In this document: in pieces, positions 78 to 29,395 of the stretch
How positions within the stretch are numbered: the first letter of the stretch is position 1
Layout: the number at the start of each line of letters is the position of its first letter
Source of the DNA: Candidatus Phycocordibacter aenigmaticus
Lineage (GTDB): Bacteria; Patescibacteriota; Minisyncoccia; Phycocordibacterales; UBA2163
Direction: 5' to 3'
DNA: 64,000 nucleotides
NCBI GenBank assembly: GCA_002327585.1
Contig: DCWL01000006.1
Span: 28,302 to 92,301, forward strand
Program-made: the position numbers and the translations under genes
Notes under the pieces: model-generated
What the model was told of the DNA's origin: nothing
The model's database searches: none
Seen by the model: the letters and a program-made list of their open reading frames with translations, nothing else

Positions 78-2999
78 TTAAGTTTTCATTATTTTAAATT
101 TGAAGCTGTATGGTTCAATTTTAATTTCCTCCTCTTCTATCTCAGTAAAATTGATTTCTTTTGCAAGAGTTGCTCTTTTTATTGTCTCTGCAAACTTTTC
201 AATAAATTCTTTCCCTCTATCGTCAGTTTCAATGTCAATATTAATTGAATCCTGCGGAGTAAGTTTCATAACTTTCCTTGCGTTTTGAATTGCGCGTGTC
301 AGTTCGCGTACATCACCTTCATCTTTAAGCTCTTGCGTTAAGTCTGTATCAAGTTTAACTTCATTTTCTATATTTTCATCAAATATAATTTCTTTCACAT
401 TTATTTCATCTTTAATCAACTGCAGTAATTGTTCCTGATTTTTGATTCCTGATTCCTTATTCGCGATGCGAAGCATCGTCAGTGGCTGTCTTACTTTTAT
501 CCCTGCATTTGACCGTGCTTCAAGTCCAAGTGAAGCAATTTTTCTCACCTTTTCCATTTCTTCCAAAACTTTCAACTTTTCACTTTCAACTTTAATCTCA
601 AGTGGCCATATCTCAAGATGTACACTTTCTTTTCCGTCAGCGCCTTTTATTTTCTGATACACCTGCTCTGCAATAAATGGTGTAAACGGGGCCATGAGTT
701 TTGAGAGTTTAAGAAGAATATATCTTGTTGTAGCAAGAGCATTTTCTTTATCCTCCCCCTTAACCTTAAATCTGTCACGGGAGCGTCTGATATACCATTG
801 TGAAAAGTCCGCGATAAACTCTCTGATATCGCGCGCAGGCTCAAGTACATTAAACTCATCCATATTCTTCGTAGAGTCTGCAATAAGTTTGTTCAGTCGC
901 GCAAGAATCCACTGGTCTAAAACATTATCACTGGTTTGTGATTTAGAATTTATGGTTTGTGATTTTTCGTGAGCATATAACTCGTAGAATTTTACGATAT
1001 TATTAAGCAGATTAAATACTTTTTTTACAACTTCATCAACACTTTTCTCGTCAAAATTCTTTGATTCCCCCGGCTGATTGACCGTATACATCCAGAAACG
1101 CAGAGCATCTGAGCCGTATTTATCTATCATCTTCCAAGGGTCAACGGCATTTCCAACCGACTTGGACATTTTTTTACCTTTATTGTCCAGAATATGCCCG
1201 AGAGAAATTACATTTCGATATGCTTTGCCTTTTCCCGAGAGAATTCCTATGGCATGAAGTGTGTAAAACCACCCGCGAGTCTGGTCAATCGCTTCTGAAA
1301 TGAAGTCTGCAGGATAACCTTTACTCTCAACCCACTGTCTATTTTCAAACGGATAATGATCTTGCGCAAACGGCATTGCGCCAGAGTCAAACCATACATC
1401 TATAACTTCTTTCTCGCGTGTCAATTTTTTTCCACCTTCATCTATAAATTCTATTTCATCAATATATGGCTTGTGCAAATCAGGTTCACCATTTTCATTT
1501 TGCGGAAGTGATGCAGAATCTGGAATATATTTTTTTAATTCCTCAATTGAGCCAATAACAATATATTCTTCCGAATTCTCTTTTTTCCAGATTGGAAGTG
1601 GTGTCCCCCAATAACGCTCTCTTGAAATTGCCCAATCCTTGACATCAGAGAGCCATTCGCCAAATCTACCTTCTCTTATATGCTCTGGCACCCAGTTTAT
1701 ACCTTTATTTTCCTTAACCAATTCGTCACGAAGCTCGGACATCCGTATGTACCATGAGTCGCGTGCAAAATAGACTAAAGCGGTCTTGCATCTCCAACAA
1801 TGTGGGTATGTGTGTTTTATTTTTTCTTTTTTGTATAAAAGATTTCTTTTTTCCAAATCTGCAATAATTTCAGAGTCAACTTCACGCACTTTTTTCCCCG
1901 CAAGAAAATCTGTCTCTGAAATAAATTCTCCCGACTCGTTTACAAGATGGTGTTTAGGCAAATTAACTTGAGTCCCAAGTTCAAAGTCATCCGTTCCGTA
2001 CATAACGGCAGTATGCACGATTCCTGTGCCGTCGTCTGTATTAACAAAATCTGCTTTATAAATTTTATATGCATTTGGAAGCTTTTCTTTTTGGTTTTCT
2101 GGAAGTGTATCTTTTAGATATGAATAAAGCGGTTCATATTCAAGACCAATAAGATCTTTTCCTTTTAATTCTTTTTTTATGTTATGGGATATTCCCGATA
2201 TATGCTCCATGCGATTGTGAGCAACTATAAAATTATCTGCTTGTAGTACGTAATCAATATCTTTATGCACAGCAAGTGCAACATTGCCAGGAAGTGTCCA
2301 CGGAGTAGTGGTCCACGCAAGTATGTATGTATTCTTTGGCAAATCGTTCTTTTCAGGATTTTTGACTTTAAATTTTACATAAACTGATTCATCTGTAATT
2401 TCCTCATATCCAAGCGCAAGTTCATGGCTTGAAAGTCCCGTCTCGCATCGCGGACACCACAGCACAACTTTATAATCTTTGTACAAAAGTTTTTGTTCAT
2501 TGACTTTCTTTATAATACTCCATACTGACTCTATATATTCCGGCTCGTATGTAATATATGGATTTTCGTGGTCAAGCCAAAACGCAATTCTCTCTGTGAA
2601 CTTCTTCCACTCATTAATATGTTTCCAAGCACTTTCTTTGCATTTTTTATTAAACTTTTCAATTCCATATTCTTCAATTTCCTTTTTTGATTTAAATCCA
2701 AGCTCTTTTTCAACTTCAAGCTCAATAGGAAGCCCGTGTGTGTCCCAACCAGCTTTTCTGCGCACATGAAAACCTCTCATAGTTTTATATCTCGGAATCA
2801 CATCCTTAAATGCCCTTGATTCCATATGGTGAATCCCTGGCTTGCCGTTTGCCGTTGGCGGTCCTTCATAAAAAACAAATTCTCCCTCTGAGATTTTCTT
2901 TTCATATGATTTTTCAAAAATCTTATTCTCCTCCCAAAACTTTAGGATTTCTTCTTCTTTCTTTGCAATCTCGCTTTTTTGATTATTATCTTTATTCAT
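78..2999 (-). CDS. ileS: isoleucine--tRNA ligase (IleRS2 type)
   Basis: GPPTANGKPGIHH (HIGH-like), WTTTPWTLP, DWAISRERYWGTPLP and KMSKS motifs. Confidence 0.95.
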   Translation of the reverse strand: MNKDNNQKSEIAKKEEEILKFWEENKIFEKSYEKKISEGEFVFYEGPPTANGKPGIHHMESRAFKDVIPRYKTMRGFHVRRKAGWDTHGLPIELEVEKELGFKSKKEIEEYGIEKFNKKCKESAWKHINEWKKFTERIAFWLDHENPYITYEPEYIESVWSIIKKVNEQKLLYKDYKVVLWCPRCETGLSSHELALGYEEITDESVYVKFKVKNPEKNDLPKNTYILAWTTTPWTLPGNVALAVHKDIDYVLQADNFIVAHNRMEHISGISHNIKKELKGKDLIGLEYEPLYSYLKDTLPENQKEKLPNAYKIYKADFVNTDDGTGIVHTAVMYGTDDFELGTQVNLPKHHLVNESGEFISETDFLAGKKVREVDSEIIADLEKRNLLYKKEKIKHTYPHCWRCKTALVYFARDSWYIRMSELRDELVKENKGINWVPEHIREGRFGEWLSDVKDWAISRERYWGTPLPIWKKENSEEYIVIGSIEELKKYIPDSASLPQNENGEPDLHKPYIDEIEFIDEGGKKLTREKEVIDVWFDSGAMPFAQDHYPFENRQWVESKGYPADFISEAIDQTRGWFYTLHAIGILSGKGKAYRNVISLGHILDNKGKKMSKSVGNAVDPWKMIDKYGSDALRFWMYTVNQPGESKNFDEKSVDEVVKKVFNLLNNIVKFYELYAHEKSQTINSKSQTSDNVLDQWILARLNKLIADSTKNMDEFNVLEPARDIREFIADFSQWYIRRSRDRFKVKGEDKENALATTRYILLKLSKLMAPFTPFIAEQVYQKIKGADGKESVHLEIWPLEIKVESEKLKVLEEMEKVRKIASLGLEARSNAGIKVRQPLTMLRIANKESGIKNQEQLLQLIKDEINVKEIIFDENIENEVKLDTDLTQELKDEGDVRELTRAIQNARKVMKLTPQDSINIDIETDDRGKEFIEKFAETIKRATLAKEINFTEIEEEEIKIEPYSFKFKIMKT

Positions 3000-3002
3000 A
3001 AT

Positions 3003-4655
3003 TTACATTCTCTCTGGTGCTTTGATTCCCAAAAGCCAGAGACCATTTTTTATTGTGTATGCAAAAGCTTGTGTAAGCGCAACTTTGTATGGCGCAGAGT
3101 CGCTTTCCTCAACTATCCGCTCTTTTGCATAAAAACTATTAAACGCTCCCGCAAGTTCTGTCAGATAAGTTGTGATATAGTGAGGTTCAAACTCTTTCCC
3201 CGCGCGCTCCACAACTTCCGGAAATCTATATAAAAGTTTCTCTAAAATATCAAGATCCAACCTTGATATTTTTGTACTTAGTTTTATATTTTGTTCTTTC
3301 GCTTTTTCTAAAACTGAGTGAGCTCTCGTGTAAGAGTACTGCAAATATGGCCCAGAGTTTCCTTCAAATGAGAGTGATTTGTCAAAATTAAATATAATGT
3401 CTTTTCCTGCTGATTGCTTTAATATTGAGTATTTTACCGCTCCTACGGCAATTTCTTCTGCAATTTCGGGCTTATTTTTAACATCTGAATTCTTCATTTT
3501 TTCAAGCACCTTGACTTTCACTTCATCAATGAGCGATTCTGCTGTAACAATGTCTCCAGTACGCGATGACATTTTTCCACTCGGTAAACGCATCATTCCA
3601 TGAGTTATATGTTTTGTTTTCTCAGCAAGCGTAGGATATATTTGCTTCATAGCTTCTAATATGACTTTAAAATATTCTTTAACTTCATTTCCTGTGATAA
3701 CAACTGATTTATCATAATTAAATCTTTCGCTTTTAATTTTTGCCAAACCTAAATCTTTTGCTTCATATGTAGGTAAACCATCCGAGTTTATAAAAACTCT
3801 TGTATGAAGTCCATACTTTTCTCCTTTGAAGATTATTGCTCCATCGCTTTCTTCAAATATTTTTCCGATATTTTCTTTTACGAGCTTTTGTCCGATTGGC
3901 CCTGTCTCACTTTCAAAAAAATATTCATCAAACTTTGTTCCAAGTTTTCTATAAATCTCTTCAAAGTGTTCAAGTGATATTTTTCTCCCTTTTTCGTAAA
4001 GTGAATTTATTTCATTATCATCTTTTTCGTATATTTTTTTATTTATTTTATTAATTTCTTTTTTATTTTTTTCATAATTTTGCACTCCATATGTATATGC
4101 TTTTCCCCATGTCATTTCAGAATTTTTTTGTTTACCAAATATTGCTTTTGCAACATGAAGCCCTACATCTCCCTGATAGTTTGCTTTTTTAACTTCCGCG
4201 CCGGAGAGTTCAACAATTCGTGAGATTGACTCACCGACTGCATTGCTCATCAGATGCCCAATGTGAAATTCTTTGAAAGGATTGGGGTCTGTGTACTCAA
4301 CAATTGTCTTTTGATTTTTCAAGAGATTATTACTTCCCCATTTTTCTCTTTCTTTTAAGATTTCATTTATACTTTCAGTAAAGAAATCCTGTGATAAATA
4401 AAAATTAATAAAGCCTGCTCCTGCAACTTCTACTTTTTCAACATGGTCTGGCTTATTTTGTACGATATATCTTATGATTTCTTGCGCTAATTCTTTTGGG
4501 GTTTTTTGGGCTTTTTTCGCAAGCACCATAGCGACATTCGTAGAATAATCTCCGTATGCCAAATCCGCAGGATACTCCAAGTGAATTTCACCTGTTTCAA
4601 GAGACATGGCTGAAACTGCGTCTTTTATAGCTTTTTTTAATATCTCCGCAATCAT
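3003..4655 (-). CDS. argS: arginine--tRNA ligase
   Basis: GDYSTNVAM, PNPFKEFHIGH, KMSSRTG, GPYLQYSYTR motifs. Confidence 0.96.
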   Translation of the reverse strand: MIAEILKKAIKDAVSAMSLETGEIHLEYPADLAYGDYSTNVAMVLAKKAQKTPKELAQEIIRYIVQNKPDHVEKVEVAGAGFINFYLSQDFFTESINEILKEREKWGSNNLLKNQKTIVEYTDPNPFKEFHIGHLMSNAVGESISRIVELSGAEVKKANYQGDVGLHVAKAIFGKQKNSEMTWGKAYTYGVQNYEKNKKEINKINKKIYEKDDNEINSLYEKGRKISLEHFEEIYRKLGTKFDEYFFESETGPIGQKLVKENIGKIFEESDGAIIFKGEKYGLHTRVFINSDGLPTYEAKDLGLAKIKSERFNYDKSVVITGNEVKEYFKVILEAMKQIYPTLAEKTKHITHGMMRLPSGKMSSRTGDIVTAESLIDEVKVKVLEKMKNSDVKNKPEIAEEIAVGAVKYSILKQSAGKDIIFNFDKSLSFEGNSGPYLQYSYTRAHSVLEKAKEQNIKLSTKISRLDLDILEKLLYRFPEVVERAGKEFEPHYITTYLTELAGAFNSFYAKERIVEESDSAPYKVALTQAFAYTIKNGLWLLGIKAPERM

Positions 4656-5930
4656 TTATATTAGTATATCAGGAATAGGGAATTTCTTGGAGAGTTCTTG
4701 GACTTCGTTTATAATTTTCTGCTTTCTACTTTCATCATCTTTATTCTCAAGAGTATCAATCATCAAGTTTGTAATAATCTCACATTCTTTCTCTTTAAAT
4801 CCTCGTGTTGTGACAGCAGGAGAACCGAAGCGAATCCCAGACGGATCCTTCGCTGAACGTTTGTCGTCAGCAATAAGATTTTGATTTACAGTAAGGTCAA
4901 CACTTTCCAGTAATTCTTGCGCAACTTTGCCTGTTATACCGAGTGAGTCGTACACGTCTGCAAGAATCATATGGTTTGATGTTCCTCCTGCAATCATTCG
5001 AATATTTCTTTTCTTCAATACTTTCTCCATTACTTTAGCATTTTTAAGAACCTGTTTAGCATATTCAGCAAATGCAGGCTGAAGTGCTTCTTTAAAACAA
5101 ATTGCTTTTGCAGCAATCATATTCATATGTGGCCCGCCCTGAATGCCGGGAAATATCGCTCTGTCGATTTTCTCCGCCAATTCTTTGCTTTCATGAATTA
5201 AAATCAATCCTCCACGCGGACCGCGGAGAGATTTGTGCGTTGTTGCTGTGATTATGTCGAAGTTTGCATCAAAAGGGTTCGGGAATGCTTTACCTGCAAT
5301 AAGTCCTGCAATGTGTGCTATGTCCACCATTGTGTAAGCTTTGATCTCTTTCGCGATAGAAACAAACTTTTCATAATCAAGTTCTCTGGTATAGGCGGAA
5401 AAGCCAGCAACAATTATTTTTGGTTTATGTTCTAACGCTAGAGAGCGAAGTTCATTGTAATCAATCTCTCCCGTATCAATGTTCTTCATCTTGTAATGTA
5501 CAAATCTATAAATTTTTGAGAGAGAAAATCCAGGATGCCCGTGCGTCAAATGCCCGCCATGCGAGAGGTCCATTGCAAGAATTGTATCTCCTGGCTTAGC
5601 AAGTGCAAAATAGGCGGCAATGTTTGCTGGATCTCCAGAGAGTGCCTGTACATTTGCGTACTTGCAGCCAAAAAGCTTGGTAGCTCTTTCAATCGCAATT
5701 CTCTCAACAGAATCGGCAAATTCCTGCCCCGAATAATAACGCTTTCCTGGATATCCTTCAGAGTATTTGTTGGTAAGGACGGAACCACTTGCTTCCCTTA
5801 CAGCACGCGATACATAGTTCTCAGAGGGAATGAGATTAATAGTCTCCGTTTGCCTTTTCTCCTCGCTAAAAATTGCATCGTAAATTTCTCCATCCTCTTT
5901 TTTTATAAAATTTAAATCTACGTGTTCCAT
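4656..5930 (-). CDS. glyA: serine hydroxymethyltransferase
   Basis: LIPSENY, NKYSEGYPGKRYY, GGHLTHG, TTHKSLRGPRGG; start trimmed to ATG at 5930. Confidence 0.96.
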   Translation of the reverse strand: MEHVDLNFIKKEDGEIYDAIFSEEKRQTETINLIPSENYVSRAVREASGSVLTNKYSEGYPGKRYYSGQEFADSVERIAIERATKLFGCKYANVQALSGDPANIAAYFALAKPGDTILAMDLSHGGHLTHGHPGFSLSKIYRFVHYKMKNIDTGEIDYNELRSLALEHKPKIIVAGFSAYTRELDYEKFVSIAKEIKAYTMVDIAHIAGLIAGKAFPNPFDANFDIITATTHKSLRGPRGGLILIHESKELAEKIDRAIFPGIQGGPHMNMIAAKAICFKEALQPAFAEYAKQVLKNAKVMEKVLKKRNIRMIAGGTSNHMILADVYDSLGITGKVAQELLESVDLTVNQNLIADDKRSAKDPSGIRFGSPAVTTRGFKEKECEIITNLMIDTLENKDDESRKQKIINEVQELSKKFPIPDILI

Positions 5931-16249: not shown

Positions 16250-17347
16250 TTAATTAGTTTCTCTAAGCGCAAGGCCGATGGCTGCTGCATATGAAAGAGA
16301 CTGAAAGCGAGTCATCTCTGGTATAAAATCATCAAATGAGAAAGCATTGATCCAGACATTTGCTCGCTCTACTGGAATTTTAAGTGCTCCGGATAAATAT
16401 TCCGGGAGCCCTTTAAGATTTGAGTTTTCCCCGCAGAGAATTATCTTTTCAATCTGTTCAACCCTGTTTCCCTTTTCATCCACACGGGTCCGCCAGTATC
16501 TGTAATGCTTATCTATATTATCTTTCAGCGTCTCCACTACATCTAAAAGCGCGGTAAAGAGTGCCTTATTGCTTTTACTTCCGACAAGCCCTTCCTTGCT
16601 TTTTATGCGGGCGACATCGCTCTCCGGCACGGAAAGATGCTTCATAATCGCTTTTGAAAGACCTTCTTCTTCAACCTCGAGCGTTGAAGTAAAAGCAAGT
16701 ACGCCGTCGCTTATTATCGCAAGACCTGTTCTCATTTTTCCAAAGCTGACAATCATATATGTCCCGTCGTCTCCTTCCCTTATTACAGCTCTTGAGATTG
16801 CCTGCGCTTCAATTTCAAAAGACAAAGACAGCATTTCGGCTTTATTAAAAGCAGATGTGTATTTAGAAATGGTTTTCTTCGGATACACTGCAACACTGAC
16901 ATCAATATGTTCTTTTGAGTCTTGTCTATTAATAATCTCATAATCAAAAACTGCTTCCTTAAGAGATAAAGGTACATGCTCTTCAAGCCTGAACTCCAAA
17001 ATACTTCTTATTTGATCTTCTTTCGCATCTTCTGGAATATGAGTCTGGAATAAATAGACTTTTTCCTCTGGAAGCGAGGCGCGTATGGATTCTATATCGT
17101 TTTCTTCTTTTATCTTTTTGAGTTCTTCTGAAAGTTTTTCCACATCTTGTATTTCACCGTTTAAAACCAGCCCGGCTGGAATCTTATACTCGCCGAATCT
17201 GGAAAGTATCTTGCCCTCTTTTTTGTTTACAAGCTCAACAAACCTTATTGAATCGTCCGATATATCAATTCCAACGGCTGGCATCGCCAAAAACTTTGGA
17301 GTTGGGAAGACTCTTGTAAAAAAACTTTTCTCTTTTGCAGATTCCAT
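16250..17347 (-). CDS. pilM: type IV pilus assembly protein PilM
   Basis: VGIDISDDSIRFVEL actin-like fold, IILCG, AAAIGLALR. Confidence 0.88.
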   Translation of the reverse strand: MESAKEKSFFTRVFPTPKFLAMPAVGIDISDDSIRFVELVNKKEGKILSRFGEYKIPAGLVLNGEIQDVEKLSEELKKIKEENDIESIRASLPEEKVYLFQTHIPEDAKEDQIRSILEFRLEEHVPLSLKEAVFDYEIINRQDSKEHIDVSVAVYPKKTISKYTSAFNKAEMLSLSFEIEAQAISRAVIREGDDGTYMIVSFGKMRTGLAIISDGVLAFTSTLEVEEEGLSKAIMKHLSVPESDVARIKSKEGLVGSKSNKALFTALLDVVETLKDNIDKHYRYWRTRVDEKGNRVEQIEKIILCGENSNLKGLPEYLSGALKIPVERANVWINAFSFDDFIPEMTRFQSLSYAAAIGLALRETN

Positions 17348-17480
17348 TGTATTTATTATATCCTGCTGTCTATTTTATTAAAAGCAAATATTGTTTATTT
17401 GTATTTCTACAGCCTGACTCTTAAACATATTTCCTCTGCAGACAAATAGTATTTTCATTTGATATCAATATAATATAGAA

Positions 17481-17534
17481 AAAAACAACAAAAGGCGGAC
17501 GAAATTTTACCTTTTGTTGTAAAACTTCTCCGCC
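17481..17534 (-). terminator. intrinsic terminator of orphan 17543-17839
   Basis: GGCGGA...TCCGCC interrupted stem followed by T-rich run on minus strand. Confidence 0.6.
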
Positions 17535-17542
17535 CCCTTTTT

Positions 17543-17839
17543 TTACATCATTTCACAAGTGAAATGGTCGACTCTATCATCAACTCTACAGCATGTTAAC
17601 CCATTTGATACTGCAATTAGATCAGCTATTTGTGAACATAATTTCTTATTTTTTGTAATTGAATTACCTATAAAAAACTTATCGTCATCACTGGAAACAC
17701 AAAGAGAAATACTTAAAAAATCTGTTTGACGACAAATTAAAAAATCTGTTTGACGACAAAAACTAACTGTACCTTCTTTATGAAATACAATGCGGTCACC
17801 TGCTTTTAGAGTTGTTACCTTACCGTCTTTGGTTTTCAT
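17543..17839 (-). CDS. Cys-rich orphan protein (SD-led cassette) downstream of hammerhead ribozyme
   Basis: 98 aa, GAAAGGAG SD, internal 24-nt tandem duplication. Confidence 0.65.
   Translation of the reverse strand: MKTKDGKVTTLKAGDRIVFHKEGTVSFCRQTDFLICRQTDFLSISLCVSSDDDKFFIGNSITKNKKLCSQIADLIAVSNGLTCCRVDDRVDHFTCEMM
17713..17760. repeat. exact 24-nt tandem duplication
   Basis: TTAAAAAATCTGTTTGACGACAAA x2. Confidence 0.9.
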
Positions 17840-17900
17840 TTTAAATCTCCTTTCAAAAAAGTTAAAAGAAATGATAATTTTTATTTAATTCAAAGAACAT

Positions 17901-17951
17901 TCTGTTTCGCTCTTTTAAGCTCATCAGTCAAGATAGACATCTTGATACAGA
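17901..17951 (-). ncRNA. type III hammerhead ribozyme
   Basis: Minus strand UCUG-UA|UCAAGAU-gucu-AUCUUGA-CUGAUGA-GCUU-aaaa-GAGC-GAAA-CAGA: complete core, three stems, GUA cleavage triplet. Confidence 0.9.
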
Positions 17952-18122
17952 GAGGTTTTTAAAGAGACCTCAACTCTGCACTTCTGTTGCCGAGACGTTT
18001 GCGTGCCTCCGCCCAGTAGGACTTATTTATAATTTACGTCATTTTTTTTCTCCTAAAAAGTTAGATTTCTTTCTCTAGCTCTTTGGCTAGAAATAAAATT
18101 ATTTCCTTCTTTTTAAGATACT

Positions 18123-18159
18123 TATGTTGAAAACATAACATATCTACATTATTTGTCAA
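18123..18159 (-). promoter_or_regulatory. sigma70-type promoter of the hammerhead-containing unit
   Basis: TTGACA...TGT-TATGTT on minus strand. Confidence 0.6.
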
Positions 18160-18433
18160 TAGCTGTGTTCAGTAAGTCTGGATGACTTAATTTAGCTATT
18201 TTATATAAATAGTTTATTCTTTTTAACATAGTTGCATATATTATCCAAAATTTTTTCAAAATCTTTATATTTAATCCAATCGTTCTTGATTTTCACTTTT
18301 AATCCTCCGAAAAAATAAAATTTATTAAAGAACAAATCGGGAACTTTCCCTTTCAGAAACTTGAAATTATTCAAATCTCTGAAAGAGAGGCCGCACAAGA
18401 GAGTGGGTTTTAAGAGTTGCCCTTTAGCATTTA

Positions 18434-19024
18434 TTAAAAGATATTGAGTGTGATAATAAATATTATAATGCCTAGTGCGAAAATGAGTGTCAAGATATTG
18501 AAATATCTGAATGCAAACTTGCTCATGTCGTCCCCGAAAACTTTCATAATGTATCCGACCGCAAAGAAGCGCATAAAGCGGGAGATGGTTGACGCGATTA
18601 TAAATATAAGAAAATTGATGCCGAAGAAACCCGCGGAGATTGTGAAGATTTTATAAGGAATTGGAGTGAACCCTGAGATAAAAATCGCCCAAAAAGCATT
18701 TTGTGCAAACAATTCCTGAATGGTCGAAATATATTGTTCAAGATTATATGCGTTGATTAGAAACTGTCCGACACTGTCGAAAAGAAGGAACCCTATGACG
18801 TAGCCGAAAGCTCCACCAATCACAGACCATATTGAAGTCAAAAGTGAATAATAGAACCACTTGCGTTTTTGCTTTGCCCCAAGTATTGCTATAAGTAGAA
18901 AATCTGGTGGCACGGGGAAGAAAGATGCCTCTGTAAACGAAAAAAAGGATAGCCAGCTCTTTGCGTGCGTGCTTCCAGCATGTTTTATCATCCAATCGCG
19001 GATTTTGATTTTTAATTTAGTCAT
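18434..19024 (-). CDS. YqaA/DedA (VTT domain) membrane protein
   Basis: SFTEASFFPVPPD, GFTPIPYKIFTISAG, SRFMRF; start trimmed to MTKLK. Confidence 0.9.
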   Translation of the reverse strand: MTKLKIKIRDWMIKHAGSTHAKSWLSFFSFTEASFFPVPPDFLLIAILGAKQKRKWFYYSLLTSIWSVIGGAFGYVIGFLLFDSVGQFLINAYNLEQYISTIQELFAQNAFWAIFISGFTPIPYKIFTISAGFFGINFLIFIIASTISRFMRFFAVGYIMKVFGDDMSKFAFRYFNILTLIFALGIIIFIITLNIF

Positions 19025-29321: not shown

Positions 29322-29395
29322 CCGCCCATAGCTCAGTTTGGTAGAGCACCTGCCTTTTAAGCAGAGGGTCGTAGGTTCGAGTCCTACTGGGCGGA
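29322..29395 (+). tRNA. tRNA-Lys(TTT)
   Basis: CCGCCCA...TGGGCGG acceptor, loop CTTTTAA. Confidence 0.92.

Follow-up and report, generated by a model that had tools for sequence, protein, structure and literature searches.

Why a self-cleaving RNA motif should stand before a small gene of unassigned function on a bacterial chromosome is the question raised by one locus of Candidatus Phycocordibacter aenigmaticus (Patescibacteriota). The window analyzed here is a stretch of 64,000 nucleotides of this genome (contig DCWL01000006.1, positions 28,302 to 92,301), and a preliminary description had noticed on its minus strand a type III hammerhead ribozyme about 60 nt upstream of an ORF; the ATG of the ORF indeed stands 61 nt past the motif. 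With a probability of roughly 0.6, the comparative evidence points to the motif being one of the spacer modules of Patescibacteria small-gene arrays; it likely acts on its own transcript, cutting it between 17946 and 17945 and releasing a single-gene mRNA.

The hammerhead motif and its cassette

When the minus strand was reread, the sequence, coordinates, geometry, and core of the hammerhead were all found as first described. UCUGUA (17951-17946) is followed by stem I (17945-17928), CUGAUGA (17927-17921), stem II (17920-17909), GAAA, and CAGA (17904-17901). The hammerhead core of CUGANGA, GAAA, and an NUH triplet is represented by CUGAUGA, GAAA, and GUA, and the three-stem topology is present with stem III open and stems I and II closed (5, 6 to 7, and 4 bp), with covariation in every helix. 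Cleavage is predicted between 17946 and 17945. Stem I had been described as 7 bp long; the helix stands, but its seventh pair more likely belongs to a 6-nt loop, UGUCUA, because loop 1 begins with UG in 179 of the 207 cellular copies of the subfamily treated below, where UGUGUA is commonest. An Infernal search with Rfam RF00008 (Hammerhead_3), the model named in the preliminary description, matched the motif over all 54 model positions with 35.9 bits (E value, 9.1e-6). The motif resembles this family in its full-length match, topology, and core; its score, however, does not reach the gathering threshold of 48.5, and a default Rfam scan of the window for that reason misses it and shows tRNAs alone. 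A structure descriptor applied at four stringencies found a single type III motif across the 476 kb of the genome, and in 30 simulated genomes it gave no match at 6/4/4 bp and 0.17 matches per genome at its loosest setting. The isolated 51 nt fold no better than shuffled sequences (z, -1.6). Contigs from independent public DNA runs are identical to the window over 17112-17884 and 17855-18392, with no variant letters, which indicates that the block is not an assembly artifact. Judged from its sequence, the type III hammerhead motif is genuine.

The features around the motif are collected in Table 1. The block that contains them is flanked by yqaA/ruvX and by pilM, in a genome that has a type IV pilus cluster. 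A TTGACA promoter had been assigned to the cassette; its -35 hexamer is present at 18159, whereas the -10 hexamer is weak, and no TGTCA half-site precedes the -35 hexamer, unlike in many array promoters, so the window promoter looks weakened. Both boxA-like sequences said to flank the ribozyme were recovered, one on either side, and the downstream one combines a consensus match after a hairpin with the presence of NusB in the genome. The ORF had been called an orphan, which does not hold strictly, since one homolog (30% identity over 90 amino acids) occupies the last slot of an array in a congener (G005:C22), with the same terminator behind it; Pfam, PHROGs, and Atlas gave no assignment for the ORF. 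A word-based protein search with the ORF returned one candidate, a near-identical protein of 87 amino acids, and missed the G005 homolog. The ORF contains a perfect in-frame 24-nt tandem duplication (17713-17760), which is seen in independent runs and is missing from the G005 homolog. The terminator is common to array ends in the genus. A weak hint of transcription comes from one metatranscriptome contig that is identical to 17486-17634 and breaks off within the U tract, its loose end being A rich; the RNA run yielded no contig across the ribozyme.

Table 1. Features of the cassette on the minus strand, in the order of transcription
Feature	Positions	Strand	Remarks
Whole lineage-specific block	17374..18440	-	Between yqaA/VTT-domain gene and pilM
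Truncated module X	18324..18425	-	19-bp hairpin 18388-18347, then boxA-like GTTCTTTAAT; z -5.6
Shine-Dalgarno (GGAGG) and 31-codon ORF	18201..18308	-	GTG start at 18296
Sigma-70-type promoter, TTGACA-16-TATGTT	18132..18159	-	10/12
Shine-Dalgarno AGGAG and start-codon-stop mini-ORF	18034..18054	-	Met-Thr-stop; Met/Val-Lys-stop in relatives
Genus-specific conserved leader motif Y	17986..18023	-	
Competing hairpin (predicted)	17946..17980	-	UGCAGA 17980-17975 pairs with UCUGUA 17951-17946; inner GAGGU/ACCUC stem
First boxA-like sequence	17957..17968	-	In loop of predicted competing hairpin
Type III hammerhead ribozyme motif	17901..17951	-	GUA triplet, loop 1 UGUCUA, loop 2 AAAA
boxA-like motif at stem III foot	17888..17899	-	Function putative
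Shine-Dalgarno AAAGGAG	17847..17853	-	After AU-rich tract
98-aa ORF	17543..17839	-	Function unassigned; ATG at 17839
Terminator-like hairpin and U tract	17479..17540	-	z -4.7; missed by simple terminator scan

Upstream of the promoter, the block contains what is probably a remnant cassette gene of 31 codons and a truncated copy of module X. This module is genus specific, has two hairpins before a boxA-like motif with compensatory changes in the first helix, and takes the ribozyme's slot in other cassettes (L016:1945-2065, 2969-3089, 3575-3735, and 4985-5105; also L018, L005, and L006). In a search of 401 genomes, 14 matches were tallied, which were strong in four genomes of the genus and in G312 and weak in the other nine. 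No Rfam match was found for module X, and its candidacy as a new or HDV-like ribozyme was rejected because it folds as two simple hairpins. A role in RNase III processing or in stability appears more likely, RNase III being present in the genome. The first 16 nt of motif Y (18023-18008, minus strand) are a perfect match to 29380-29395 on the plus strand, where tRNA-Lys(UUU) has its 3' end. A primer site or co-varying sensor was rejected as an explanation, since the match is perfect here only and both motif and tRNA differ in G005 and G008; the copy is possibly the core of an old attachment site. In metagenomes, the motif Y pattern, which is loose, gave 1 true copy among 118 matches. A Shine-Dalgarno (SD) sequence, a start codon, one further codon, and a stop codon are also kept upstream of motif Y in L017, L022, L024, and L032.

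A ribozyme subfamily in arrays of small genes

An alignment of 18 copies of the motif has an invariant core, with 97% of the cells in helices paired and two-sided changes at 13 of the 15 pairs, a level reached by none of 500 shuffles and not approached by a slid control. The covariance model built from these copies (R1) matched 36 of the 150 other genomes sampled from the order (or 28 of 142 once the 8 genomes that supplied training copies are set aside), 17 of 150 genomes sampled across the phylum, and 4 of 9 congeners, with up to 8 subfamily copies per genome in the order sample. The exact 23-nt pattern of the window ribozyme occurs at at least 129 genome loci; among the 80 matches listed with titles, 67 belong to Patescibacteria groups and 7 to other groups, and 6 name no group. 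The same subfamily is found ahead of ORFs in viral contigs (28 loci), where 16 of 19 distinct copies are type III. None of 10 relative copies listed under RF00008 reaches the gathering score (best, 44.4), which indicates that routine annotation misses the subfamily. A contact between loops 1 and 2 is typical of fast natural hammerheads. For loop 2, a length of 4 nt with a final A is seen in 188 of the 212 cellular copies, and the conserved loops fit the pattern expected for such a contact. In L002, L003, L016, L038, and L059, stem II has a U-U at its base in place of the usual G-C, and a similar GC-rich hairpin of about 35 nt is inserted into loop 2 in L011/L027 (G003), L024 (G008), and L354.

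In the relatives, the copies share one strand and separate small variable ORFs, 3' of a TTGACA promoter and flanked by housekeeping-type genes, and 14 of 46 clusters contain 2 to 5 same-strand copies. The slot that recurs across the order consists of a ribozyme, a boxA-like motif, an AU-rich stretch, an SD, and a small ORF. A TrmB-like gene lies no more than 4 kb upstream in 23 of the 46 clusters (17 divergent) and downstream in 4, compared with 0.57 expected from density; this count covers 75 of 78 ribozyme places, the three weakest having been dropped, and the related genomes are not independent. A loose palindrome extends over the -35 hexamer in 17 of the 54 promoters listed, a figure without a control. 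The boxA-like motif, with the family consensus (A/U)GUUCUUURAAA, follows 104 of 212 cellular copies, mostly 4 to 9 nt past the core, compared with 4.8% in a random control and none of 23 viral copies. Similar motifs occur in the rRNA leaders of all four relatives inspected.

An ORF begins within 350 nt of 129 of 170 copies, 47 of these ORFs having a strong SD, and housekeeping genes follow some ribozymes; the missing ORFs and the housekeeping neighbors indicate that one ribozyme per mRNA is not a universal arrangement. From a list of 125 downstream ORFs, 92 were scanned; 72 of these had no Pfam match, and those with a match include housekeeping genes, NUDIX, and three RNA polymerase alpha-CTD domains. 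Other array cargo consists of Mu Gam-like, TROVE/Ro60, and STIV B116-like proteins, and PHROGs matches were obtained for 2 of 30 cargo proteins. TROVE/Ro60 genes stand right behind a hammerhead in two arrays (L243:3836-5455 and L034:3402-5246). In a second context, a conserved NUDIX gene of about 190 amino acids follows the hammerhead at a distance of about 15 nt (L091, L095, L118, L139, L151, L158, and L163).

At the site of the window cassette, yqaA directly abuts pilM in six congeners (G002, G004, G005, G007, G008, and G009), and two further congeners carry different inserts. The 1-kb block was compared with 60 relatives, of which 15 matched it piecewise; leader motif Y, module X, boxA, the SD tract, an ORF homolog, and the terminator are common to the window and the arrays of G004, G005, and G008. 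No TrmB match was found in the window's genome at an E value of 1e-6 or less, and the window copy thus lacks a TrmB head. The shared modules, the G005 homolog, and this missing TrmB let the cassette be read as the displaced end of an array, that is, a displaced piece of a kind of array found across the phylum. Recombination between shared modules may have taken it from an array headed by TrmB, in which case it would now be unrepressed. An 11-bp direct repeat, CTTTTAATAAA, bounds the block (18440-18430 and 17384-17374), but it matches the ancestral sequence on both sides, so that a deletion in G002/G008 explains it equally well. In the G005 array, a near-identical repeat of more than 200 nt (L016:1845-2060 and 2867-3085) suggests duplication of modules by recombination.

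Probable transcript cutting or a possible gated switch

Hammerhead cleavage leaves a 5'-OH and a 2',3'-cyclic-phosphate end. In the reading favored here, the ribozyme would cut during or soon after transcription and leave a 5'-OH mRNA opening with the stem I hairpin, with the boxA-like site and the SD behind it and the terminator at its end. The release of a downstream mRNA headed by this hairpin had already been proposed in the preliminary description and is supported as the would-be outcome. The 5' hairpin and a loaded ribosome may stabilize the mRNA, and NusB-S10 loaded on boxA may carry RNA polymerase through the long structured spacers. In the genus, a predicted upstream helix competes with stem III, and cutting may be slow or conditional there. 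Since RNase J is present, the 5'-OH end could also start decay. No match to Rho was found in the window's genome (16 contigs, which may be incomplete) or in five relatives, which argues against the favored reading, as boxA would have no evident thing to protect from. The weakened look of the window promoter counts against it too.

Both the ribozyme class and the cutting of a polycistron into single genes are already known. For clustered prophage hammerheads, Perreault et al. (2011, PMC3088659) proposed that long transcripts are cut into gene-length mRNAs, and according to the cited passages tandem copies cleave polycistronic RNA in vitro, as three sets did. The Patescibacteria arrays resemble that system, as far as those passages describe it, in ribozyme class, in tandem copies around variable genes, and in the proposed cutting of transcripts. 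However, they are chromosomal, flanked by housekeeping-type genes, headed by a TrmB-like gene, and not near integrases, and about half of their copies are followed by a boxA-like motif; the window copy likewise does not share the prophage location near an integrase. In the boxA of rrn and CRISPR leaders, as presented in the cited part of PMC13753749, a hairpin is also followed by boxA near the Bacillus subtilis consensus AUGAUCUUUGAAA, which was shown to bind NusB, and NusB is present here; the array boxA differs from these in being repeated for each small gene, fused to a ribozyme, and located in genomes in which Rho was not found. Processing at synthetic insulators of the RiboJ type and at the RNase III sites of the T7 early region gives a uniform 5' end whatever the upstream sequence. 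The arrays are like these in design only, being natural, chromosomal, and provided with an added boxA. No description of hammerheads or TrmB arrays in Patescibacteria was found in the literature searched, which consisted of papers open without subscription. What appears new relative to that literature is the scale and setting, with subthreshold hammerheads in about a quarter of the sampled genomes of the order, chromosomal arrays headed by a regulator, and a fusion to a boxA-like motif that is absent from viral copies. The arrays offer many natural test cases for what bacterial hammerheads do.

The main alternative, though rather unlikely, is a gated ribozyme or decay switch, in which the helix from 17980 to 17946 would keep the ribozyme off until it is opened by NusB-S10 bound to the boxA-like loop or by a ribosome occupying the mini-ORF; cleavage would then leave the mRNA open to attack by RNase J, in the manner of glmS. 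Within the leader of 246 nt, the active fold lies 5.8 kcal/mol above the optimum and the probability of stem III is near 0, so folding alone does not favor the ribozyme fold, which also speaks against the favored reading; the same folding model, however, recovers stem III for just 19 of the 211 cellular copies and hence under-predicts the ribozyme fold. The 5' strand of stem III is predicted to be sequestered with a probability of 1.0 in the window copy and 0.96 in G005:C20 but only 0.11 in G004. In four to five congener copies, conservation extends to the inner stem, the boxA-like loop, and the SD-start-stop element, and RNase J and NusB are both encoded in the window's genome. However, the leader module that would act as the gate is restricted to the genus (3 of 301 genomes). 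Across the family, the end of the 5' product is paired in 70 of 211 copies, which is no enrichment over shuffles (49%); a general rule that the 3' end of the upstream product is capped by pairing was rejected on this comparison. The glmS ribozyme of B. subtilis, in the cited passages of PMC10810187, is likewise a self-cleaving RNA located in a 5' leader; its host cell has RNase J, and this enzyme degrades its 3' product. The window ribozyme is of another class and has no known ligand, and its 3' product would start with a hairpin and carry a strong SD; a base-paired start and a strong SD slow RNase J in B. subtilis according to the same passages.

Shine-Dalgarno signals and the remaining alternatives

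The strong SDs of the arrays contrast with the rest of these genomes. In the window's genome, SDs precede 26 of 380 long ORFs, which at 7% in random sequence is background, and a TATAAT-like hexamer lies close to the start in 104 of the 380. The canonical anti-SD is gone from the 16S tail in all eight relatives inspected, three of them congeners; the tail was read from relatives, the 16S 3' end of the window's genome lying outside the assembly. uL1 was not found in the window's genome (16 contigs, which may be incomplete). A subset of Parcubacteria has lost the anti-SD motif and lacks uL1 (Tsurumaki et al., 2022, cited passages of PMC9297842), and the present group resembles that subset in having no CCUCC tail in eight of eight relatives, no uL1 found, and core genes without an SD. 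SD-led accessory arrays and ribozymes are absent from the account in those passages, and the tail of the genus differs in being a C-to-U eroded form that can still pair. Of 46 array ORFs, 29 have an SD, which in 28 cases keeps the canonical spacing of 9 to 13 nt from the start, compared with 9 of 380, 15 of 290, 4 of 169, and 6 of 122 long ORFs genome-wide (2 to 5%; four genomes, three sampled partly); the start rules of the two counts differ, and a closer control gave 7 of 236. The genus tail AUUUCC pairs over 6 bp in register with GGAGAU of the window (-6.1 kcal/mol), and 71 of 380 background leaders reach -4 kcal/mol with the same tail. The tail of G014 pairs with the SDs of its own arrays at -1.4 to -4.8 kcal/mol, compared with -7.1 to -10 for CCUCCU. 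The simplest reading of these pairings is that the genus's own ribosome still reads strong SDs. The puzzle is sharpened that accessory genes keep SD and boxA in cells without a canonical anti-SD and Rho. Pyrimidine-eroded forms of the anti-SD were seen in the 16S tails L286-L290, L422, L423, and L427, and some relatives have a 16S tail with apparent complementarity to the boxA-like part of the rRNA leader.

We consider it improbable that the arrays are addressed to a host, with ribozymes cutting a regulated transcript into compact, end-protected mRNAs (or with DNA being passed on) for translation by host ribosomes. The loss of the anti-SD and the failure to find uL1, which fit the subgroup described in the cited part of PMC9297842, the enrichment of SDs at array ORFs, and the poor pairing of the G014 tail would suit this idea, as would cargo such as a Mu Gam-like nuclease inhibitor, TROVE/Ro60, a STIV B116-like protein, and alpha-CTD domains. 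If true, it would mean bacterium-to-bacterium mRNA delivery with ribozymes as a packaging step, and host ribosomes would make anti-defense and takeover proteins from epibiont cassettes. However, the eroded genus tail still pairs with the window SD, which may thus be read by the cell's own ribosome; boxA does its work while RNA is being transcribed, and the relatives' own rRNA leaders keep boxA-like motifs; the TrmB-like gene and the palindromes point to control within the CPR cell; and there is no evidence of transfer of any kind.

A similarly low probability is given to a decaying relic of a phage or mobile element, that is, a captured spacer and gene of a phage early region that drift without function. 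The viral copies ahead of ORFs and the look-alike of a tRNA-Lys 3' end, as at attachment sites, are consistent with such an origin, and signs of decay are found in the missing TrmB match, the weak -10 hexamer, the truncated module X, the 31-codon remnant, and the 24-nt duplication in the ORF. On the other side, ribozyme, boxA, SD, and terminator are intact, and the block is identical in runs of separate studies. In addition, housekeeping-type genes flank the arrays, few cargo proteins match PHROGs, the link to boxA is missing from the viral copies, and the nearest tyrosine recombinase, which is also the only one, lies 40 kb from the cassette.

A unit mobile through RNA, in the manner of retrozymes or viroids, with RtcB-ligated circles copied back into the genome, is highly improbable: the block is lineage specific and has the 11-bp direct repeat on either side, and the tandem ribozymes of relatives would release fragments with 5'-OH and cyclic-phosphate ends, but that repeat has the alternative explanation by deletion given above, the block holds a single ribozyme and includes its own promoter, no reverse transcriptase (RVT_1) was found in the 16 possibly incomplete contigs of the window's genome, and no circular or spliced products were detected for prophage hammerheads in the cited passages of PMC3088659. 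The link to RtcB drawn in the preliminary description falls as well, since no RtcB was found in these contigs and only 1 of 38 ribozyme-bearing relatives has one.

Elsewhere in the window's genome (G000), about 15 more stand-alone SD-led accessory genes were observed, including a Mu Gam-like gene; such genes lie at C1:~3700-4550, C7:63283-63828, C13:1611-2096, C8:60908-63325, and C12:18923-19372. The C1 cassette shares its terminator with the window cassette.
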